Below, piece by piece: positions 16,965-56,713 of a DNA stretch of 64,000 bases; within the stretch, counting starts at the first letter, position 1; every line of letters starts with the position of its first letter. A program made the translations under genes and the position numbers. The notes beneath the pieces were generated by a model, which was given only the letters and a program-made list of their open reading frames with translations, searched no databases and was not told where the DNA came from. Source of the DNA: Candidatus Levybacteria bacterium RIFCSPHIGHO2_02_FULL_40_18 (GTDB lineage Bacteria > Patescibacteriota > Microgenomatia > Levybacterales > GWA1-39-11); contig MFOC01000007.1 of the NCBI GenBank assembly GCA_001782235.1, positions 156,040 through 220,039 of the forward strand. Direction: 5' to 3'.

Positions 16965-17021
16965 AATTTCCCTTTCTGTATGTTATCCTGAACCCCGCTT
17001 TATCGGGGTGAAGGATCTTTT

Positions 17022-17327
17022 CTAAAGCGTACCGGAATAAAACTCCAGCTTCTTTGAGAGATCCTCCCAATTAGGATTTTTAGATTCGATTAGTTTTATT
17101 TTCTTTGCCCTAGTCCAGCCTTTTATTTTCTTTTCTGCTTCGATAGCGTCTCTTACATATGAGAACTCTTCGAAAAAGACTAGTTTATTTACATTATATT
17201 TAGCTGTAAATCCTTTCATAAGTTTAACTTTATGCTGTCCTGTCCGAATTAATATATTATTTGTAACACCCGCGTAAAGAACTTTATCATTCCAATTAGT
17301 CATTATATAAACAAAATAGTGTTTCAT
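17022..17327 (-). CDS. Standalone GIY-YIG nuclease family protein (COG2827-like, ~100 aa)
   Basis: YFVYIMTNWNDKVLYAGVTNNILIRTGQHK matches the GIY-x10-YxG ... R ... H motif. Flanked by a 16-nt direct repeat (16950..16965 and 17376..17391). Confidence 0.8.
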   Translation of the reverse strand: MKHYFVYIMTNWNDKVLYAGVTNNILIRTGQHKVKLMKGFTAKYNVNKLVFFEEFSYVRDAIEAEKKIKGWTRAKKIKLIESKNPNWEDLSKKLEFYSGTL

Positions 17328-17428
17328 ATAAGGCTAAGATTCTTCGCCTATGGCTCAGAATGACAATACCACTTTGAGGTGAATTCGCCATGAATCCAGT
17401 TTAGGGAATTTCGGCTAGTTTGTAAAGC

Positions 17429-49277: not shown

Positions 49278-49793
49278 TTAGCGAGTCACTGAGATTGTAG
49301 CTCCAAGTTCTGCATCCGGGGCATTAACTGTAATTCTATTGTCGGTTGCGCTCTGAGAAATTGTATATCCTGTGTCATAAGCTGCCGCACATTCGCTCTG
49401 ATCAATAGGGTCACCGTTATTGGTCAGTGGATCAACAGGAAGCGCTGCGATATATTGGGGAACCAAATCATCACAAATGTTCACTCCGGTATCTGCAATT
49501 GCCGATGCTGTTGCCGTTATTCCCAGAGCAGTGAGATTCCCCTGGTTGTCTGCCGCATATTGGCCGACAGCGTTAAGAACTGCGTTAACATCGCTACTTC
49601 TTTTTGTGTTATTTGCTTGAGAGAATTGCCGTGCAGGGTTAATTGCTATAAGCGTGATTGCTAGAAGCACAGCAAGAATACCTATGACGACTAAGAGTTC
49701 GATTAGGGTGAACCCAGCACTATTTTTACAATATTCCACCCAACGACGAAAATGGTGCTGGGTGAATCCTTGAATGCGGCGGGCAGATTTCAT
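49278..49793 (-). CDS. Type IV pilin (prepilin N-terminal cleavage/methylation domain)
   Basis: NSAG|FTLIELLVVIGILAVLLAI. With the ATG start the leader is unusually long (26 aa); an in-frame GTG would give MEYCKNSAG. A 14-bp inverted repeat spans the leader coding region. Confidence 0.75.
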   Translation of the reverse strand: MKSARRIQGFTQHHFRRWVEYCKNSAGFTLIELLVVIGILAVLLAITLIAINPARQFSQANNTKRSSDVNAVLNAVGQYAADNQGNLTALGITATASAIADTGVNICDDLVPQYIAALPVDPLTNNGDPIDQSECAAAYDTGYTISQSATDNRITVNAPDAELGATISVTR

Positions 49794-49841
49794 TACATAC
49801 TAATCATAAGCATATTCCCAAGTACTTGTCAAGAGCCTATA

Positions 49842-50516
49842 CTATCTCCCGGTGAATATAAGGAAAATTAATATTAATAAAAGCAGGCCAAAAATACCCA
49901 ATATGATATAGAGCCTTAAGCTTTTGGGTTTATTTTTGCCTACTTGTGATTCAACTTGAGAGGCTGTTTTCTTTTCATTTCTCTCAAACTCAAAACTTGC
50001 CTCCTTTAAAGAATCAAATTGCTTGATAATGGTCTTTGAAGTCTCTGTAGTTACGGAATTTATTCCCGAAGAAAGTTCGCCAAGAAACTCATACGGCACC
50101 ATTCCCTCAATTGAAAAGCCAAACTCTTCAAAAGAGATCTTAAGCGCATCCAAAAGATTTTTATTTACAGCTATAGCTCTTACTCCTTGTTGGATTGGGA
50201 GAATCTTAGTGCTTATGGACTCAAAGGGAATTATATCCAGAAACTTCTGGACCTCCTGGGCTTGAGTATTTGGATCCTGAACTTGAATATCTTTTTCGAA
50301 TAAGACGTCTGCCAATAGAATAATCATTAAATCTGCCCGAGAAAGTTTGTTTGTTTCAACAAAAGTCTTAATTTGATTCTTTAGCTCTTTGAGGTTGATA
50401 ATCTCTAAAGAAAATACTACGCCTTGCGAAAAGGGGAAATTTAAAATTCGGCCATCGCGATCTTCATAAAAATCAAAGCCGTCTCTTCTAAGAAATATTA
50501 CTCCTTGCGATCTCAT
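49842..50516 (-). CDS. Hypothetical protein with C-terminal TM, embedded in the pilin cluster (pilus assembly accessory?)
   Basis: 224 aa with a single C-terminal TM (LYIILGIFGLLLLILIFLIF). The context between pilin genes suggests a pilus-biogenesis role; no motif confirms it. Confidence 0.3.
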   Translation of the reverse strand: MRSQGVIFLRRDGFDFYEDRDGRILNFPFSQGVVFSLEIINLKELKNQIKTFVETNKLSRADLMIILLADVLFEKDIQVQDPNTQAQEVQKFLDIIPFESISTKILPIQQGVRAIAVNKNLLDALKISFEEFGFSIEGMVPYEFLGELSSGINSVTTETSKTIIKQFDSLKEASFEFERNEKKTASQVESQVGKNKPKSLRLYIILGIFGLLLLILIFLIFTGR

Positions 50517-50529
50517 GTTGTTTTACTCG

Positions 50530-50907
50530 TTACTGTTCCTTCCAAGAGGAAATGGTTAATATATTATCATTATATGATGCTTGCGCTTGAATTGTTCTTT
50601 TAAAATTTCCATTCGTGGCTTGTGATGTAATAATATATGGAGCCCCACCCCCTCCCGATACCTGAATTTCCAAAGTGTAATCTTCCAAACTCAATGTTTC
50701 CCCCGTATAATTCGGGTCTCTTAAGAGTCTTATGATTGCATTTTCAATACCTATTTCTGCGGCATCATAAGAAACCATGCCCTGATATAGCTTACTCGTG
50801 GTCTTGCTGTTTATTATAATTACGGCTACAGCGGCTGTTATAATTATTATGGCTGTTACCATAAAAATCATAAGAGACACAAGAGTTTGCCCACTATTTT
50901 TTTTCAT
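50530..50907 (-). CDS. Pilin-like / pseudopilin (MKKNSG|QTLVSLMIF N-terminus)
   Basis: Short basic leader ending in G followed by a hydrophobic helix; 125 aa. Confidence 0.4.
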   Translation of the reverse strand: MKKNSGQTLVSLMIFMVTAIIIITAAVAVIIINSKTTSKLYQGMVSYDAAEIGIENAIIRLLRDPNYTGETLSLEDYTLEIQVSGGGGAPYIITSQATNGNFKRTIQAQASYNDNILTISSWKEQ

Positions 50908-51440
50908 CTTAATCCTGAAGTTGTTTGAACTGTTCTTGTTTCAGGCCCCGCTTCTCTTTGGGTAACGCTTGTTAGCGTTAAAGAGATAGTTACAGTATTT
51001 TTCCCGCCGACATTCCCAAGTTTCTTAAAGGAAAGGTTTGAGATCCTTGTCCCGAAACTGTTTAAGTTATCGGACCCTTGGCTATTCGTGATTAAAAGAT
51101 TTCCGGCAGAAAGAGAGTATATGTTTGATGTTCCATCAATGATGAGCTCAAGGGAATCGGTAACAGCCGAGGGAGTTGCGGGCACTGCGATATTTTCCGC
51201 ACGATTTATATCATAGATAAGCCGGGCCATAATAAATCGGGAATCTTGCGAAACTTGAGAGTTTGCTTCCGATTCAAGCCGTACCCCGAGAACTGATGTA
51301 AAAATTTGAGTTTGGACCAGGAGAAAAAGCGAGAGAATACCCATATATAGGAGGAGTTCGACAAGTGTAAATCCAGCACCATTTTTTGGTTTTGGAGAAC
51401 ATAGTTCAAGCTTAGATAAAAATGGTGCTGGATAAATCAT
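50904..51440 (-). CDS. Prepilin-type N-terminal domain protein (minor pilin / pseudopilin)
   Basis: KNGAG|FTLVELLLYMGILSLFLLV. 23-aa leader; a perfect 16-bp inverted repeat lies in codons 3-24. Confidence 0.7.
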   Translation of the reverse strand: MIYPAPFLSKLELCSPKPKNGAGFTLVELLLYMGILSLFLLVQTQIFTSVLGVRLESEANSQVSQDSRFIMARLIYDINRAENIAVPATPSAVTDSLELIIDGTSNIYSLSAGNLLITNSQGSDNLNSFGTRISNLSFKKLGNVGGKNTVTISLTLTSVTQREAGPETRTVQTTSGLR

Positions 51441-53452
51441 GGTGAATAGTTGACAGTAACGTCATTTAATACTGGTGCCGCATATACATCGGTGGTAGAA
51501 AAATATGCTTTATACTTAAAGCAGCGTCCTGGATTAACATACCCTTGCGCGTTTGTAAGAAGAGGAATAGCAGACGAGGTTGCAAAGAACGTGTTTGAAG
51601 TTCCGTCCGGCCCCACAAAATAATAAGAGGAATTAGTGCAGCTTCCACCAACATCGGAAGCCACAGCTACTTGAAGCTCCAAATTTGTTCCCAAAGGCTC
51701 AATGAAATTAGGAATAATTCTGTTGTAGGCAACACTTGATCCTGCGTCAAAAGGGCCTGAGACAAAAGTGCCTGAAGTTGTATATTCTCCTCCGGGTCCG
51801 CCTTCAATAACCTTGAGCTCCAAAGGAGCATCCCCGGTGACAATATATGAATAGGCGTCTCCATCTGCTTCAAGAACTGATGCGCTGTCATTAATGCCAA
51901 AGTTCATCTGCATTCCTCCGCATCTGACAGGACTTGCTTCTGTTGAGATATCAATAACCTGATATTCTTCGCCTCCCTGTCCAATAACAACTGCCCGATT
52001 CCCGGGTACAATTTCAACGGCTTTAAGATTAACAGAAGTCCCGGCATTATAAGTGCCTAAATCCGGACAATCACTGCAATTTTTGTTTGTAGTGTTAATT
52101 ATGAAAAATTCGGGCAGTGTGGATGAAGCATCTGTAACAAGATAGGCTCTTGTCGCATCGGAGTTCATGTAAACATCTCTTGCTGCCTCTCCATTTACAT
52201 CTGCCCATCCAACTCGAGTTATGCTGGCCGGGTTTGAGATATTGAAAATCTCAAGTTCTCTTACGTGTCCCGCAATCGAGACAAATGCATAATTTCCCGA
52301 AACCACAACAGACGTTCCGGTCGCAGAGATTGCCGCGCCATCCGGGTCAATTGCGGGACAAGAGCCAGTTCGATTTCCTCCGCTACAGGTGGCAAGATTG
52401 AAATTTCTAAGTCTATTCCCTTGTGTCATATAGCCGGTGTTGCCCACTATAAAAACACTATTTGTGTCGGTATTTCCGAACGCATCAAAGTATCCCGATT
52501 CGGAATATGGAAGGGTAGCCATGTTAATAATAACTATCTCCTTAGAATTCGTGTCTGTTCCTATATATCCATAATTACCTTCTATATAAACATCATTTGT
52601 TTTATAACCGTTAAATGTTCCCGAAATTGTAGCGACAGGTGGATCGGTATTTGTGACGGCAATATCGGCAAGGGATACTCCGGAAGAGTTTTCTCCTGTT
52701 CCTGCCAAGATGCGGCCTTCATATGCCGAGACGGCATTTGCTACTCCACTTTTGGGAAGATCAAGATCTTCGACAATGTACTGATTAGGATTACACCAGT
52801 CACCGCCTCCTCCCGCGCCTAGAGTGACCTCGCCTCCATTGGTGTTTGTAACTATGGTACCCGATAGAGTTCCCGAATTAAAATCGGACTCTGAAGTTTG
52901 CGTAAAAATAGTGTTGTTAAGATAACGAGTTAAATACATGGTCGAGGTGACCCCTGATGGGTATGGAGTATTCCAGGAAACAGTGATAACGCTCTTTTTA
53001 GTTGATGGATCAAGCGTTCCGCTTTCGACAAGATATCCATTAGAATCTCGGTAAGCATCACTTATCGTGATTTGACGCGCGTAGCCGTTAATTGTTTCGC
53101 TTCCTGAGATAAGCTGCCATGAAGGCCCGGATCCTTGAGGATGATAAGTTCCATTTGTTTCAACTTGCGACCAGCTTGTTTCGCGGATTACACGTAAAGC
53201 TTCCTGACCCTCACGCAAAAGCCCCGTTGCCTCAAGTCTCTGCGCATTTTGCGCTTTTCCCTCTCGTGATGCCACAAGCCCTGTTATGAGTCCTGGCAAA
53301 ACAAGCGAGGCAAAGGCCAGAGCCACCAGAAGTTCCACCAATGCCTGTCCATTGTGGCTTCGCCACAATTTTAAAGTTAAAAGTTTAAAGTTAAAAGTTT
53401 TTAAAGAGAAGCTATAATTTTGACTTTTGAATTGTAATTTTGAATTTTGCAT
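51437..53452 (-). CDS. Large (about 640-670 aa) pilin-like protein, candidate minor pilin / tip adhesin
   Basis: HNG|QALVELLVALAFASLVLPGL prepilin-like N-terminus followed by a large beta-rich domain. The true start is probably the in-frame TTG at 53369..53367 (leader MWRSHNG) rather than the track ATG at 53452, which would translate the upstream tandem repeats. Confidence 0.55.
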   Translation of the reverse strand: MQNSKLQFKSQNYSFSLKTFNFKLLTLKLWRSHNGQALVELLVALAFASLVLPGLITGLVASREGKAQNAQRLEATGLLREGQEALRVIRETSWSQVETNGTYHPQGSGPSWQLISGSETINGYARQITISDAYRDSNGYLVESGTLDPSTKKSVITVSWNTPYPSGVTSTMYLTRYLNNTIFTQTSESDFNSGTLSGTIVTNTNGGEVTLGAGGGGDWCNPNQYIVEDLDLPKSGVANAVSAYEGRILAGTGENSSGVSLADIAVTNTDPPVATISGTFNGYKTNDVYIEGNYGYIGTDTNSKEIVIINMATLPYSESGYFDAFGNTDTNSVFIVGNTGYMTQGNRLRNFNLATCSGGNRTGSCPAIDPDGAAISATGTSVVVSGNYAFVSIAGHVRELEIFNISNPASITRVGWADVNGEAARDVYMNSDATRAYLVTDASSTLPEFFIINTTNKNCSDCPDLGTYNAGTSVNLKAVEIVPGNRAVVIGQGGEEYQVIDISTEASPVRCGGMQMNFGINDSASVLEADGDAYSYIVTGDAPLELKVIEGGPGGEYTTSGTFVSGPFDAGSSVAYNRIIPNFIEPLGTNLELQVAVASDVGGSCTNSSYYFVGPDGTSNTFFATSSAIPLLTNAQGYVNPGRCFKYKAYFSTTDVYAAPVLNDVTVNYSP

Positions 53453-53470
53453 TATGAATTTTTAATTTAA
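53370..53470. repeat. Two adjacent 7-nt-periodic tandem repeat arrays (AAAGTTA/AAAGTTT and TTTTGAC/TTTTGAA) between pilin genes
   Basis: ttaaagttaaaagtttaaagttaaaagttttt ... aattttgacttttgaattgtaattttgaattttgcattatgaatttttaattt. Confidence 0.75.
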
Positions 53471-53935
53471 AGAGGTGACTACGCCATATCTATTTATATT
53501 TATGGTTTTTGAGTCCTGAGCAACAGTATCTTCTAAAGTTATAGAATTTTGTGTTTCCGAAAATGAGGTTACTTCCCCACTTTTAATTAAAAAAATAATC
53601 TGAGAGGACGGAAAAGTCGATTGGATTTGTAAATCCTCGTTCAAGTTTATAGTAAAGTTTGAAGGATCGTTTGGATCAAAATTGTCACCATGGAAGAGAG
53701 TGTAAGAATTAGTTCCAAAATAGATTCCATAATTATCGTTTGTAGAACGTCCTTCCGTGTCGCCTGCCATAACTTTAATCTGTTGAGAGGAGAGGTCTGA
53801 AATAAGGGTTGTTATAGCTGTACCTAAAATGGACCCACTTCTAAAAGGCACGAAGCTGATGCTTGCCATGCCAGCAAGCGTCATGAGTATTCCGATAACT
53901 ATGATTACTTCAATAAGAGTGATTCCGCGCTTCAT
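53462..53935 (-). CDS. Type IV pilin (MKRG|ITLIEVIIVIGIL)
   Basis: Canonical short leader and prepilin methylation domain; 157 aa. Confidence 0.7.
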   Translation of the reverse strand: MKRGITLIEVIIVIGILMTLAGMASISFVPFRSGSILGTAITTLISDLSSQQIKVMAGDTEGRSTNDNYGIYFGTNSYTLFHGDNFDPNDPSNFTINLNEDLQIQSTFPSSQIIFLIKSGEVTSFSETQNSITLEDTVAQDSKTININRYGVVTSLN

Positions 53936-54984
53936 CGTGGTCCAACCTGACCAATCAGGCCATAAATTGGCGAAATAATTGCCAACATCATTCCTCCTAC
54001 AATTATGCCCACAACAATCAGCATAATTGGTTCAAGAAGAGAGATTAGAGTCCTAAGAGTTGTTGACACCTGATAATCAAGATATTCCGATACATCCTGC
54101 ATGGATTTGTCTAAGGAACCGCTTTTTTCTCCCGCCTCGGTAATTTTTATCATTATACTCGGGAAAATATTTTTTGCTGCCTTAAGTCCTTCAGATAATT
54201 TATTACCTGATAGAACCATATCGCGAGACCTTATAATTGCCTGTGCTACTTCTTTCTTTAAAACAATCTCCTGTGTTAATTCTAGCGCCGTGGTAATAGG
54301 TATCCCGGCATTAAGAAGAATATAAAGATTTCGTGAAAAACGTGTAAGATCTATCTGCCTCGCAAGACTTCCTACAAGTGGAAAGGAAAAAAGAATGTTT
54401 AGGAACACATGTTTTTGATTTATATACATAAAAATAAATACTATAAGTAAAATTATTCCTCCCAAGACAAGAAAAATGGTTTGTTTAAGAATTAGATCGG
54501 ACAATAAAATCAAGATTTGAGTAGGCAAGGGGAGAGGAACGTTTAGACGCAAAAAAACTGTCGAAATTTTAGGGATAACCACGGTTAGGATCATGAGCAA
54601 AACGCCAATAAATACAAGAAGAATAAAGGCAGGGTAAGTTAATGCAGCCCTTATTTTATCCCTAAATTCTGTTTCCATTCTAATATTTTCTTTTAGATCC
54701 AAAAGAGTTACATCCAGAGTTCCTCCCTCCTCGGCCGCTTTTATAAGATTTACAGTGACTTTGTCAAAAATTTTAGGGAATTTTTCAAAAGAGGCCGAAA
54801 TATGGACGCCTTGCATGAGATCTTCCCGCAATACCTCAAGTAGTTTCTTTTGATTTCCTTTTGAGTCCTCAAGAAGGGAGTCTACGATCTCAAGGATTGA
54901 TAGACCTGCCTCAAGCATTGTTGCGAAGTTGCTAATCAAGCCTAATTTTTCAGAATTGGATATTGAAATAGATTTTATGTTCAT
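53932..54984 (-). CDS. pilC: Type IV pilus assembly platform protein PilC (GspF family)
   Basis: Two T2SSF repeats (…LIKAAEEGGTLD…, …ITEAGEKSGSLD…); three TMs per repeat. Confidence 0.85.
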   Translation of the reverse strand: MNIKSISISNSEKLGLISNFATMLEAGLSILEIVDSLLEDSKGNQKKLLEVLREDLMQGVHISASFEKFPKIFDKVTVNLIKAAEEGGTLDVTLLDLKENIRMETEFRDKIRAALTYPAFILLVFIGVLLMILTVVIPKISTVFLRLNVPLPLPTQILILLSDLILKQTIFLVLGGIILLIVFIFMYINQKHVFLNILFSFPLVGSLARQIDLTRFSRNLYILLNAGIPITTALELTQEIVLKKEVAQAIIRSRDMVLSGNKLSEGLKAAKNIFPSIMIKITEAGEKSGSLDKSMQDVSEYLDYQVSTTLRTLISLLEPIMLIVVGIIVGGMMLAIISPIYGLIGQVGPR

Positions 54985-55015: not shown

Positions 55016-56713
55016 TCATACTAATTCTACTTTGGTAACTCTTAGGACCTCTTCTATAGTTGTAACGCCTCGTGTTGTCTTGTCTAAGCCATCTTCAAGC
55101 ATTGTAACCATCCCCTCGCTGATTGCTTTTTGCTCAATTACATCAGAGTCGCTTTTCTCGGTAATTAATTTCCTTATGTCTTTTGTAACCTCTAATACTT
55201 CAAATATTCCAATTCTTCCGGAATAACCTGTTGAATGACAAATTTTACAGCCTTGTCCCTTAAAAAATTCAACCTCGATTTTTTCTCCAAAATGTTTAGT
55301 TACCATTTCTTTTGGAAGATTCTTGATTAATTCTGAAGTGGAAATTTTATATGGCGCTTTACACATTTCACAAATTTTTCGAACCAACCTTTGGGCAATA
55401 ATTACATTAACAGTTGATGCGACCAGGAACGGTTCAACGCCCATATCAATTAAGCGGGGAAGGGAAGTGGCCGCATCATTTGTGTGTAATGTAGACAAAA
55501 CTAAATGACCGGTTAGAGCAGCATTTACAGCAATTCCTGCAGTTTCATTGTCGCGAATTTCCCCAACAAAAACAACATTTGGGTCTTGTCTTAAAATAGA
55601 GCGCAGACCATTGGCAAAAGTTAGATTGGTTTTAGGGTTTGCCTGTATTTGATTTACTCCCATGATTCTATATTCAATAGGGTCTTCTATAGTGGTGATG
55701 TTTTTTTCCCTAGTATTTAAGATCTTTAAGATAGCGTAAATAGTGGTAGTTTTTCCCGATCCGGTAGGACCGGTTGATAGGACCATTCCGTATGATTTAT
55801 TGTATGCGGATGTTACTTTCTTGAGTTCCTCCTCATTCATTCCTAGATCAATAAGAGAAAATTGTCTGTATCTTGCGGCAAGAAGTCTTAACACAGCCTT
55901 CTCCCCATCCGTAATTGGCAAAATTGATACTCTAATATCTAGATCCTCCTCTTCAAGCTTAACTCTCATTTTTCCATCCTGCGCACTTAAATGCTCATCG
56001 GTTCGTAGCCTTGAAAGAATTTTTATTCTTGAGATTATTCTGTCATGAAAATTTTTTGGCAAGAGAAGCACGTCATGGAGTATTCCGTCAATTCTGAACC
56101 TGATTAAAGATTCTTTTTCCTGCGGCTCTATATGAATATCTGACGCTTTATCCTGATAGGCAAATTCTATAAGAAGCGTTACGATTTTCTCAATTGGGGC
56201 TTCATCTGATAATTTTGAGGGATCTGTCTCTCCCAGTTCTTTGTGCAATAGCTCTTCAAAGGTAACCTGAAGGGCTTTTTTATAAATTTTTAGAACGCTT
56301 TCGATATCTCTTTCCGTAGCAAGATATGGTATAACCCTAAAACCGGCTTTCTTGCCGATTACATTTTGTAACTCAACATTTGTTGGATCAACCATGGCAA
56401 GTCTTAATCCATCTTGGTCCAATGCAAACGGAATGACTTTATTTCTCCTCGCAGTTTTTTCAGGGATTATATGAAAGATGTTCTCAGGGATTGATAATTT
56501 TGATAAGACTATGAAAGGGATATGGAGAAAATTGGCAATAAGAATTCCTAAATTTTCATCAGAAATTATGTCCTTTTCAATTAAAGCATCATTAAGAGTT
56601 ACTTTAGAATTCTTAGCGAATTCATTAAGTTCCTCAAGCTTTTCTTGCGTAATAACTCCTGTTTTTAAAACTAATGCTTTTAACTCTTCCTCAGAAATCA
56701 GCATGGGCAGCAA
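55016..56713 (-). CDS. pilB: Type IV pilus assembly ATPase PilB (GspE family)
   Basis: Walker A LSTGPTGSGKTTT, Asp box, Walker B, His box, and a tetracysteine motif CEMCKAP...CKICHSTGYSGRIGIFE. Confidence 0.9.
   Translation of the reverse strand: MLPMLISEEELKALVLKTGVITQEKLEELNEFAKNSKVTLNDALIEKDIISDENLGILIANFLHIPFIVLSKLSIPENIFHIIPEKTARRNKVIPFALDQDGLRLAMVDPTNVELQNVIGKKAGFRVIPYLATERDIESVLKIYKKALQVTFEELLHKELGETDPSKLSDEAPIEKIVTLLIEFAYQDKASDIHIEPQEKESLIRFRIDGILHDVLLLPKNFHDRIISRIKILSRLRTDEHLSAQDGKMRVKLEEEDLDIRVSILPITDGEKAVLRLLAARYRQFSLIDLGMNEEELKKVTSAYNKSYGMVLSTGPTGSGKTTTIYAILKILNTREKNITTIEDPIEYRIMGVNQIQANPKTNLTFANGLRSILRQDPNVVFVGEIRDNETAGIAVNAALTGHLVLSTLHTNDAATSLPRLIDMGVEPFLVASTVNVIIAQRLVRKICEMCKAPYKISTSELIKNLPKEMVTKHFGEKIEVEFFKGQGCKICHSTGYSGRIGIFEVLEVTKDIRKLITEKSDSDVIEQKAISEGMVTMLEDGLDKTTRGVTTIEEVLRVTKVELV

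Follow-up and report, generated by a model that had tools for sequence, protein, structure and literature searches.

The two long inverted repeats at the 5' ends of two pilin genes in the analysed stretch of DNA (64,000 nucleotides, hereafter the window) are most probably copies of a small palindromic mobile element with GIY-YIG nuclease relatives, lodged in pilin leaders, rather than regulators of pilin expression. The cleaved prepilin leader would then be a tolerated insertion site for a hairpin/GIY-YIG element. All three inverted repeats described in an earlier note were confirmed in place: 16 bp with a 31-nt loop in pilin A, 14/15 bp in pilin B, and 8 bp in the big pilin.

Inverted repeats in the window

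Pilin A is encoded on the minus strand at 50904..51440 (178 aa, from the ORF list and homologues) and matches the Pfam N_methyl family with E = 3.2e-5. Its ATG and the stop of the preceding gene, the big pilin, overlap as ATGA. The ORF-less hairpin element, delimited from the 16/16 repeat, the comparison with the sister Levybacteria L160 and L161, and the folds, occupies 51368..51436 on the minus strand, where it reads TTTA / TCCAGCACCATTTTT / 31-nt loop / AAAAATGGTGCTGGA / TTTA. The arms, at 51371-51386 and 51418-51433, are complementary at 16 of 16 positions. On the mRNA, the 5' arm begins 7 nt past the A of the ATG, and the 3' arm encodes K-N-G-A-G-F; the protein starts with the leader MIYPAPFLSKLELCSPKPKNGAG, followed by FTLVELLLYMG. 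This is the only perfect repeat of at least 14 bp with a loop of at most 60 nt in the 64-kb window, and 0-1 perfect repeats of at least 12 bp are expected from block shuffles of the window. Given that the pilin A protein, including its leader, is recorded from 30 contigs of several independent sources, the repeat is no assembly artefact.

Pilin B is encoded at 49278..49793 on the minus strand (171 aa, from the ORF list and alignment), with an N_methyl match of E = 1.4e-8 in Pfam. Its ORF-less hairpin element, delimited from the repeat and the comparison with L160/L161, lies at 49705..49770 on the minus strand. The core arms ACCCAGCACCATTTT and AAAATAGTGCTGGGT are complementary at 14 of 15 positions, the lone mismatch being C.A on the mRNA strand and G.T on the plus strand. 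The extended arms (49705-49726 and 49749-49770, 22 nt each, with 22 nt between them) are complementary at 18 of 22 positions. A promoter-like site for pilin B (TTGACA-18-TATGAT, 11/12 matches) is found at 49803..49832 on the minus strand; it is the best in the region, and its hexamers are kept in L160/L161. Given that 10 nt separate it from the ATG at 49793, a very short 5' UTR is implied.

RNA folding, which the earlier note had suggested as a check, differed between the two. The pilin A hairpin dominates its mRNA fold (-29.4 kcal/mol, z = -4.8), and the RNA and DNA folds of the element give z between -4.8 and -6.5, whereas in the pilin B sense RNA the repeat is not chosen as the minimum-energy fold (z = -0.75). 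The antisense strand and single-stranded DNA of pilin B do fold into the hairpin.

The hairpin ATTGTGGC-GAA-GCCACAAT of the big LVIVD pilin (53351..53369, minus strand, 8 bp, read from the sequence) covers the gene's probable TTG start at 53368-53366. It is unrelated to the element family and is statistically ordinary, within chance: perfect 8-bp repeats with loops of 3-8 nt number 20 in the window, versus 0-13 (mean about 8) in shuffles. The hairpin measures 7 bp in L160/L161 and is absent from more distant big-pilin orthologues, which have other leaders.

Empty and filled sites in relatives

The operon of L160/L161 is syntenic gene for gene, with pilin genes, start codons and ATGA overlap all conserved, and both long repeats are missing from it. 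At the position of the pilin A element, these genomes have an ordinary leader, ATGAAAAAATTTCAAATTGCAAAGTCGAACGGGTTCACT, such that the leader appears to have been replaced in the window. Pilin B of the window has exactly 54 nt extra, in frame (about 49713-49766), at GGA↓TTYAC, the Gly-Phe-Thr cleavage codons, which accounts for 171 aa against 153 aa in L160/L161. Without the insert, their site reads ...AAAGGA↓TTTACATTAATCGAA; in the window, the direct repeat GGATTCACC / GGGTTCACC flanks the insertion. The resulting protein contains the ancestral leader MKSARRIQG↓FT, then the insert-encoded QHHFRRWVEYCKNSAG↓FT, then LIELLVVIG. The same is seen between L024 and L034, where a clean 36-nt in-frame insert is found at GGC TTT A↓CG and the rest is near-identical.

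In 39 species-level genomes, no orthologue of pilin A contains the repeat. Among 97 prepilin sites, a perfect repeat of at least 9 bp that contains G+C and reaches the cleavage site occurs only in the three element-bearing ones; the other repeats of that length are A/T runs or stop short of the cleavage site. These sequence comparisons point to the two long repeats being lineage-specific insertions, and it is solely the phylogenetic distribution that suggests a gain and not the exact loss of an ancestral sequence. The leaders, considered suspect in the earlier note, are indeed abnormal at 23-27 aa, being inflated by the inserts from an ancestral length of about 9-11 aa, but the annotated ATGs are probably the true starts, since they are conserved in L160/L161.

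The element family and its nuclease

The element ends are conserved as (TTTA)YCCAGCACC ... GGTGCTGGR(TTYAC), and the 3' arm itself supplies the cleavage motif K-S/N-G-A-G↓F-T. Besides the two window copies, both in pilin genes of one operon, the element is present in other genomes in pilin genes that are not orthologous, and away from pilin genes in low-GC metagenome contigs. The insert of L034, in a B-type pilin, and that of L185, in an A-type pilin of a different genome, are identical at 34 of 36 positions, with flanks that are dissimilar as judged by eye. L131 contains an exact copy of the window's pilin A arm ATCCAGCACCATTTTT, L184 and L029 have a compensated variant of the arms (ATCCCGCACC / GGTGCGGGAT), and tandem pile-ups of up to four elements are found at one pilin site in L125. 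Across genes the 5' arm is read in three frames (YPAPF, TQHHF/IQHQL, LSSTTF), which suggests it is conserved as DNA and not as peptide. No match for the repeats was found in Rfam.

A metagenome scan for the element gave at least 120 matches, in which the flanks TTT...TT, not forced by the search, occurred in 37 of 81 low-GC matches against 1 of 39 high-GC ones. Given that most members in the scan sit outside pilin genes, some at non-coding-looking sites, pilin specificity may hold for one subfamily only.

Full-length relatives contain a single-domain GIY-YIG nuclease gene of ~81 aa flanked by arms or whole hairpins, with either one arm just upstream of the nuclease ATG or whole hairpins on both sides. 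The GIY-YIG gene lies between arms or adjoins a hairpin in L048, L125, L131 and P0023, and it was located at the 5' end of a pilin gene in 8/8 cases examined, a small sample picked by similarity and by the size of the surrounding contig. These include further homologues, sampled likewise (P0038, P0041, P0065 and P0070), all four of which immediately precede a pilin-type gene within a cluster of pilus genes. The original leader is stranded upstream, or an arm is present there, in three of these four, and a hairpin or 3' arm plus ...SGAG↓FT follows downstream in all of them. Among the first 45 nuclease homologues, arm-encoded peptides are found at the ends of about a dozen ORFs. The nearest solved relatives of the nuclease are UPF0213/SLX1. 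One relative is located within 23S rRNA and another directly adjoins RNase P RNA, locations which suggest these relatives act like homing endonuclease genes.

No member of the pilin-associated GIY-YIG subfamily was found in the 64-kb window, whose sole GIY-YIG gene (17022-17327) is 33% identical to that subfamily and has different hairpins. The loops of the two window copies present no significant similarity to full-length elements, so that internal deletion from such elements is no more than a candidate route for their origin.

Proposed mechanism and alternative explanations

ORF-less copies of the element would have inserted into the codons of the prepilin leader and cleavage site, in frame, lengthening or replacing the leader yet recreating the Gly↓Phe-Thr site. 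Prepilin peptidase should then remove the insert along with the leader, and the insertion would hence be nearly silent, with pilin still made. Full-length elements at pilin 5' ends borrow the promoter and start region of the pilin, whose frame is either fused to the nuclease ORF or restarts through an ATGA overlap. Judging from Ssn/NTS systems and homing endonucleases, the nuclease probably has a role in mobility: it would recognise either the hairpin or GGNTTYAC, the conserved site in pilin genes, and help the element to be copied into the N-terminal regions of other pilins. The window copies may be miniature derivatives, or footprints of elements whose nuclease ORF has been lost.

The earlier note saw in these hairpins a translation gate or thermosensor, i.e., cis-regulatory mRNA structures under selection for the level or stoichiometry of pilin expression. 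In pilin A the hairpin is highly stable and starts in the zone needed by the initiating ribosome, the ATGA overlap could couple pilin A translation strictly, and the probable TTG start lies inside the big-pilin stem. However, the repeats are missing from the syntenic sister operon despite its identical starts and overlap, and from the pilin A orthologues of the 39 genomes, an observation that the earlier note itself had named as speaking against such a gate. Moreover, the pilin B sense RNA does not take the hairpin as its minimum-energy fold, the pilin B and L034 hairpins begin 24-39 nt past the AUG and hide neither the start nor the ribosome-binding site, the same hairpin occurs at non-pilin sites, and Rfam holds no counterpart. 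Regulation is hence a rather improbable explanation, although the pilin A hairpin could have a secondary effect on translation initiation; under the mobile-element reading, any effect on pilin translation would be a by-product. Slightly better placed, yet still unlikely, is that the repeats are domesticated sites, retained by the host for an Ssn-like single-strand nuclease controlling recombination or transformation at pilin genes. Neisserial NTS clusters lie around surface-protein genes, and their hairpin repeats near membrane-protein genes modulate transformation (PMC11893778); Patescibacteria take up DNA via type IV pili and ComEC (PMC12455944). The L125 pile-ups and the presence of both window copies in one operon would also fit. 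Against this, the elements are sporadic among close relatives, unlike a conserved host function, and the cognate nuclease was not seen in the window.

A local template-switch or quasi-palindrome mutation, making an inverted copy of the cleavage-site codons without any mobile element, would fit the short insert, the 3' arm being ordinary pilin coding sequence (G-A-G-F-T), and the partly palindromic nature of GGTTCACC. This is very unlikely, given that the empty sites of L160/L161 (...AAAGGA TTT ACA) and L024 (...AAGGGC TTT ACG) hold neither arm, so both arms are new DNA, and that near-identical arms, and even loops, recur across unrelated genes and genomes and flank nuclease genes. The earlier note's other suggestion, a recombination or inversion substrate, stands as regards a recombination-type feature at the DNA level, but what is indicated is insertion of a mobile palindrome, not a switch by inversion. 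Crossover sites for phase or antigenic variation, as in Moraxella pilin inversion, would explain inverted repeats within the conserved pilin N-terminal coding region; yet the 21-31 nt between arms are too short for invertase synapsis by established systems, only leader residues would change, and the operon presents neither a recombinase gene nor an alternative pilin cassette, which makes this the least credible possibility.

Comparison with known systems

The hairpin/GIY-YIG element resembles Rickettsia palindromic elements, Ssn/NTS systems and free-standing homing endonucleases. Rickettsia palindromic elements are reportedly about 100-150 bp long and found in many gene families, their peptide being kept in the mature protein, whereas the pilin inserts are 30-65 bp, site-specific, and located in a proteolytically removed segment. 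RNA thermometers and start-site hairpins, such as the ROSE and fourU types, share with pilin A and the big pilin a stable stem near the start codon; the pilin stem, however, sequesters no ribosome-binding site, is not kept in orthologues, and is found in non-coding contexts.

Free-standing GIY-YIG homing endonuclease genes are known from the Seg type of phage T4. As with those genes, the nuclease ORF lies in or beside a highly conserved target gene, its presence varies among close relatives, and it has relatives at rRNA and RNase P RNA loci. In contrast, the pilin elements end in inverted arms, leave behind or disseminate hairpins that lack an ORF, and target a multi-copy protein-coding motif (the prepilin Gly-Phe-Thr codons), and their host product would be rescued by the host signal peptidase instead of an intron or intein. 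Homing endonuclease genes are also reported from rRNA insertions of candidate-phyla-radiation bacteria (PMC11270868).

Ssn nucleases (Chenal et al. 2025, Nat Commun, PMC11893778) are small GIY-YIG proteins whose genes lie between cognate hairpin repeats, an arrangement like that of an IS. The element shares with Ssn, NTS and the Ssn-related motif (SRM) a small (~80-100 aa) single-domain GIY-YIG protein (PMC11893778), the IS-like hairpin-gene-hairpin layout between 20-50-nt hairpin-forming repeats, ORF-less hairpin copies elsewhere, and oriented, non-palindromic flanks on the hairpin. Its hairpin sequence is distinct, however, and does not match the published SRM pattern; the window holds 2 copies in 64 kb against dense dispersal in Neisseria, and its nuclease, with UPF0213/SLX1 as nearest solved structures, is at most a candidate member of the Ssn clade (cd10448).

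REP/RAYT and IS200/IS605 elements undergo hairpin-guided single-strand transposition (PMC11893778). They resemble the pilin element in having ends defined by hairpins, insertion beside a short specific sequence (TTTA / TTYAC in the pilin element), and more ORF-less hairpin copies than nuclease-bearing ones. The enzyme is nevertheless a GIY-YIG nuclease and not a Y1 HUH transposase, and we know of no transposition chemistry for the GIY-YIG fold. In fractured genes with split inteins and a homing endonuclease gene (Dassa et al. 2009, PMC2677866), the host gene is likewise interrupted by a nuclease gene and its product restored after translation, although restoration of the pilin would occur via leader-peptide cleavage and translational restart rather than protein trans-splicing.

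Inverted repeats in the type IV pilus operon

The ORF list and the domain search place a type IV pilus operon on the minus strand of the window, comprising PilB (55016-56713), PilC (53932-54984), a 157-aa pilin (53462-53935), a 671-aa pilin with LVIVD repeats (51437-53452, the big pilin), pilin A (50904-51440), pilin B (49278-49793) and two small ORFs. The inverted repeats reported in an earlier note for the 5' ends of three of these pilin genes are all present where described. In pilin A, arms at 51371-51386 and 51418-51433 are complementary at 16/16 positions around a loop of 31 nt. In pilin B, a core with 14/15 complementary positions extends to 18/22 over 49705-49726 and 49749-49770, and the repeat in the big pilin is ATTGTGGC-GAA-GCCACAAT at 53351-53369. 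The repeat of pilin A is the only perfect one of at least 14 bp, with a loop of up to 60 nt, in the window, and block shuffles yield 0-1 repeats of at least 12 bp. Given that the window holds 20 repeats of 8 bp with 3-8-nt loops, versus about 8 in shuffles, the big-pilin hairpin is unremarkable on its own. The whole window yielded no Rfam family match at gathering thresholds.

The repeats in pilins A and B are most likely copies, without an ORF, of a short palindromic element. Its arms, as written, are TTTAYCCAGCACC...GGTGCTGGRTTTAC, and the empty pilin site reads ...AARGGNTTYACNYTNATHGAR. Likenesses of GGTGCTGG to a Chi site, a restriction site or a tRNA end found no support and were dropped.

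The big-pilin hairpin is unrelated in sequence to this element. Its stem has 7 bp in L160 and L161, the syntenic loci of sister Levybacteria, where the surrounding region is nearly identical overall, and it is absent from distant orthologues, which have leaders such as MPKLLRG|QSLIE; conservation of the stem is therefore uninformative, being seen only in near-identical relatives. A/T-rich tandem repeats (periods 7/14 and 7/20) lie between the 157-aa pilin and the big pilin, at 53370-53468; they are conserved in L160 and L161, and the 671-aa ORF that begins at ATG 53452 runs through them. A more likely true start of the big pilin is TTG 53368, which gives the leader MWRSHNG.

Empty and filled insertion sites

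The operons of L160 and L161 match that of the window gene for gene, including the flanking DnaJ and S8 peptidase genes. Their pilin B has 153 aa versus 171 aa in the window, and the alignment places in the window gene a clean 54-nt insertion at ...AAGGA|TTYAC..., bordered by the direct repeat GGATTCACC / GGGTTCACC. The leader thereby grows from 9 to 27 residues, the conserved ATG is kept, and so is a promoter-like site (49832-49803, minus strand, TTGACA-18-TATGAT). The end of its -10 hexamer is 10 nt from the ATG, and inspection by eye shows no Shine-Dalgarno sequence (49793-49832); the pilin B mRNA may be leaderless or nearly so. In pilin A, whose ATGA overlap with the upstream gene is shared by the window, L160 and L161, the ordinary leader AAAAATTTCAAATTGCAAAGTCGAACGG of the two relatives becomes TTTATCCAGCACC...GGTGCTGGA in the window. 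A second, independent pair is formed by L034 and L024, loci with otherwise near-identical DNA, the former being the latter plus exactly 36 nt, A[TCCAGCACCAGCTTCGAAGAAGTGGTGCTGGATTTA]CG.

For the ORF-less form, related genomes thus carry filled and empty alleles, as is expected of homing genes (the window versus L160/L161; L034 versus L024). For the full-length form, the only trace of an empty site is the original leader (MKGFT, MPKKGFT), left stranded 5' of the ORF. We infer the direction of these insertion or deletion events from distribution alone. The leaders of pilin A homologues range from 4 to about 45 residues, the majority being MKxxxKG|FTLVE, and none of the pilin A orthologues from 39 species-level genomes among the matches listed contains the repeat. 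Across 97 prepilin cleavage sites, a perfect repeat of at least 9 bp that contains G+C and reaches the site occurs only in the three element-bearing ones; other repeats of at least 9 bp are A/T runs or end short of the cleavage site.

As with RPE-like elements, the insertions are palindromic and in frame; against the empty sites, the insert measures 54 nt in window pilin B and 36 nt in L034. In-frame read-through is also seen in L042, L114, L127 and L174, and pilin A has an unbroken ORF. Inverted arms are evident, TTTA / TTYAC(C) direct repeats occur at both ends, and no transposase is present; the direct repeats could be a target duplication, or a fixed element end beside a fixed target.

Regulatory and inversion readings

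The earlier note had read the repeats as mRNA hairpins that gate pilin translation, acting as a thermosensor or a control of stoichiometry, or alternatively as a substrate for recombination or inversion. The 5' arm is translated in different frames, as Y-P-A-P-F in pilin A and as T-Q-H-H-F in pilin B, and the loops differ by 10 nt, so that conservation is of nucleotide sequence and not of peptide. The arms of pilin B mismatch once, as C.A on the mRNA strand and as G.T on the opposite one. In RNA folding, the repeat is not the best fold of the pilin B sense RNA (z = -0.75) and the opposite strand does choose it; as single-stranded DNA, both strands form the hairpin, the sense strand being the weakest. 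A conserved regulatory hairpin is contradicted by the distribution, in the way that the earlier note had named as refuting it, and the conservation among orthologues that marks an RNA thermometer is lacking: both long repeats are absent from L160 and L161, and that of pilin A from the species-level orthologues of this gene.

The stem begins at +7 after the AUG in pilin A and at +24 in pilin B, and neither ribosome-binding site nor start is sequestered in either gene; a start, TTG, lies within a stem only in the unrelated 8-bp hairpin of the big pilin. An invertible switch fares no better, since the loops measure only 21-31 nt, too short for inversion by the standard of established systems, and the operon genes include no recombinase. 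What survives of the regulatory reading concerns pilin A alone, which keeps its ATGA overlap, now with a 16-bp stem beginning 7 nt past the AUG. It is plausible that de novo initiation is hindered there and that translation hinges on ribosomes arriving from the upstream ORF, as a side effect of the insertion.

The hairpin family in metagenomes

Scanning metagenome contigs with the pattern ATCCAGCACC-N6-36-GGTGCTGGAT returned at least 120 loci. The pattern left the flanks free; TTT before the element and TT(A) behind it accompany 37 of the 81 low-GC matches listed versus 1 of the 39 high-GC ones, and the high-GC matches look like chance or unrelated coding sequence. The stem is often prolonged inward, frequently by ACTTTT/AAAAGT. 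Among the matches listed, more than one hairpin is found at 17/81 low-GC metagenome loci; the window has two copies in 64 kb, both within pilin genes. The hairpin stands directly at a pilin cleavage site only in L042, L048, L114, L125 and L127 among the matches listed, and in L131 such a site holds a second copy, whose arms are variant. The remaining listed matches have non-coding-looking surroundings, sometimes right behind a stop codon.

The insert in the B-type pilin of L034 and that in an A-type pilin of another genome (L185) are identical at 34/36 positions, with flanks that are dissimilar by eye, and a variant with compensated arms, ATCCCGCACC / GGTGCGGGAT, is present in L184 and L029. 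Such identity in unlike pilins, together with the compensated arms, suggests the element moves among non-orthologous genes and genomes with its pairing maintained.

The proposal that copies outside pilins always adjoin a stop codon was rejected, given it is true of only about 11/84 low-GC matches. In these, the hairpin starts a few nt from the stop, usually TAA, of an ORF of at least 80 aa (L066:5539, L069:12217, L079:2972, L119:9320 and others), and the TTTA flank is the reverse complement of stop plus A. The gene 3' end may be a second tolerated insertion site.

A subgroup (L064, L081, L085, L119, L134, L135 and others) combines the usual outer arms with a nested inner stem, TTCCTGCGGGG...CCCCGCAGGAA, and GGTATT in the loop; no member lies in a pilin gene. 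L133:7394-8971 has four copies of ATCCAGCACCAAAAAGCGGTGCTGGAT at intervals of about 500 bp (480-559 bp), with an identical 12-nt sequence behind each; the TTT/TT flanks of the family are missing from them, and a relationship is improbable. The long leader of P0020, a pilin A homologue, contains LLHCYIV ... NGAMEQWSN, and back-translation by eye suggests it holds a different inverted repeat, so other palindromic inserts may likewise use prepilin leaders.

GIY-YIG nucleases at pilin 5' ends

Full-length relatives of the element carry a gene for a small GIY-YIG nuclease. Protein P0023 is such a domain fused to a pilin, and reads ...DLSSTTF (5' arm), nuclease, ...KSGAG|FTLVE (3' arm). With tblastn, nucleases of the P0023 type were found beside the hairpin in L048, L125 and L131, where one arm or the whole hairpin lies immediately 5' of the nuclease ATG, and a degenerate 3' arm and/or a full hairpin follows the ORF, succeeded by the mature pilin coding sequence. 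Complete hairpins stand on both sides of the nuclease gene in L131 and L125; L048, L162 and L171 have the 5' arm upstream and a degenerate 3' arm plus a full hairpin downstream. A single pilin site in L125 (4980-5420) bears a stack of four elements, namely one hairpin, one full GIY-YIG copy whose arms are degenerate, and a further two hairpins.

The protein search returned 118 nuclease homologues of 71-134 aa, the named ones mostly from Patescibacteria; those of L048, L125, L131, L162, L171 and L174 have 80-97 aa. Pfam PF01541 is the sole precomputed domain in most homologues, some having a weak T5orf172 match. Four near homologues, sampled by similarity and length of surrounding DNA (P0038, P0041, P0065 and P0070), all lie directly 5' of a pilin-type gene within a pilus gene cluster. 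A Pfam N_methyl match is present in 3/4 of the downstream genes, and the fourth, after P0041, reads ...SGAG|FTIIE in the DNA. In each of these four loci the hairpin or its 3' arm encodes ...SGAG|FT ahead of the downstream pilin. Hence the closest nuclease subfamily is found at pilin 5' ends in 8/8 loci examined, a small sample, and the association does not extend to more distant homologues.

Full-length copies come in two gene structures: nuclease and pilin form one fused ORF in L048, L131 and P0023, and in L162, L171 and L125 the pilin frame restarts at an ATGA overlap with the nuclease stop. The nuclease ORF begins within a few nt of where the mini-ORF of the stranded leader ends. L162 keeps the original start ATG AAG GGA TTT AC, followed by CCAGCACCACTTTTAAT and then by the nuclease ATG, and the original start in L171 is MPKKGFT. 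Translation of the 3' arm gives K-S/N-G-A-G, a canonical short leader end, then F-T. Arm-encoded peptides (PSTTF, YPAPL, FTQHHF, NPAPLF) stand at the ends of about 12 of the first 45 homologue ORFs.

More distant homologues occupy other genes. P0142 lies inside a 23S rRNA gene (L180:1501-1779), P0095 overlaps the 5' end of an RNase P RNA (L178:1501-1749), and P0094 is between a sensor kinase gene and a gvpL/gvpF-family gene; homing endonuclease genes typically occupy such places. The ORF in L178 is flanked by an inverted repeat, CCCCGCACCT / AGGTGCGGGG, whose 3' arm falls within the 5' part of the RNA gene.

Comparison with known systems and proposed mechanism

Ssn proteins are single-domain GIY-YIG proteins that cut single-stranded DNA beside a cognate hairpin, copies of which enclose the Ssn gene much as in an IS (PMC11893778). 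The Ssn family is the closest mechanistic precedent: the element's relatives likewise encode a single-domain GIY-YIG protein of about 80-100 aa and have hairpin repeats on both sides of the nuclease gene. However, the nearest solved structures for the element nuclease are 1zg2 (UPF0213, E = 2.5e-5) and SLX1, and it is at most a candidate member of Ssn (cd10448 clade). The published Ssn-related motif, HGTCWYN(0-2)YYVSBRHN(0-5)WNVSBRGN(0-2)RNCYNB (PMC11893778), matched as a regular expression neither strand of the window nor the two pilin hairpins. The likeness to homing endonucleases lies in the nuclease ORF being lodged in or beside a conserved target gene, as in 8/8 loci of the closest subfamily. 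In the full-text literature, with most subscription journals outside coverage, no earlier account of GIY-YIG/hairpin insertions in prepilin leaders was found.

We tentatively propose a GIY-YIG/hairpin mobile lineage in candidate-phyla-radiation bacteria, specialised on the Gly|Phe-Thr codons of type IV pilins, with remains that are removed by prepilin peptidase, a reading for which we consider the balance to be slightly unfavourable. The target would be these cleavage codons, the most conserved stretch of type IV pilin genes, and the element would bring its own copy of the cleavage motif while borrowing the pilin promoter and start region; expression from that promoter is in itself probable. 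It is likewise probable that prepilin peptidase cuts after Gly and discards everything upstream, leaving the pilin functional; on the bolder reading, removal of the translated remains would be a protein-level counterpart of intron or intein splicing, performed by a host enzyme. Spread probably depends on the GIY-YIG nuclease, with either the hairpin or the conserved GGNTTYAC site as its substrate. Given the many pilin paralogues per genome, each pilin gene would be a homing site, and a target recreated at the element's own 3' end would explain tandem pile-ups, as in L125. The hairpins could also turn pilin N-termini into hotspots of recombination or of single-strand cleavage of incoming DNA, which would tie the element to pilus-dependent DNA uptake.

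On this proposal, the lineage would be a mobile element sheltered in a signal peptide that the host removes, and a relative of the recently described Ssn/hairpin systems that resides in coding sequence. Where a prepilin leader in Patescibacteria is long or odd, or an ORF fuses GIY-YIG to a pilin, this can be an artefact of element insertion, and no new pilin class or regulator should be read from it. Since the element targets the attachment and DNA-uptake organelle of episymbionts, it may influence pilin diversification, expression or recombination. Each nuclease-hairpin pair also offers a candidate single-strand DNA nuclease, sequence- or structure-specific, whose cognate site is known.

Element copies and a different GIY-YIG gene in the window

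The window itself has two ORF-less copies, and a tblastn search with one query found no member of the pilin-associated nuclease subfamily within the 64 kb, including the pilin sites. When the loops of both copies were compared with full-length elements and nuclease ORFs, no score exceeded the shuffle maximum; the resemblance seen by eye between the pilin B loop and an ORF ending in ...KRRVGL* is unsupported by this comparison. The window copies may be deletion derivatives, independently mobile miniatures, or copies recombined from another pilin gene.

A profile search revealed a different GIY-YIG gene, of 101 aa, at 17022-17327 on the minus strand. Given its protein is only 33% identical to the pilin-associated subfamily and its hairpins are others, it is not taken as the cognate enzyme. 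The ORF sits between rpsT and a 183-aa PilN-like ORF (region 16965-17400, minus strand), and its cassette has the hairpins GTCATTCTGAGCC-ATA-GGCGAAGAATC and ATCCTTCACCCCG-ATAAA-GCGGGGTTCAGGAT. A 17-bp direct repeat brackets the cassette: the opening codons of the downstream ORF, ATGGCGAATTCACCTCA, recur on its upstream side at 17374-17390. This looks like a second, different GIY-YIG/hairpin insertion at the extreme 5' end of a gene.
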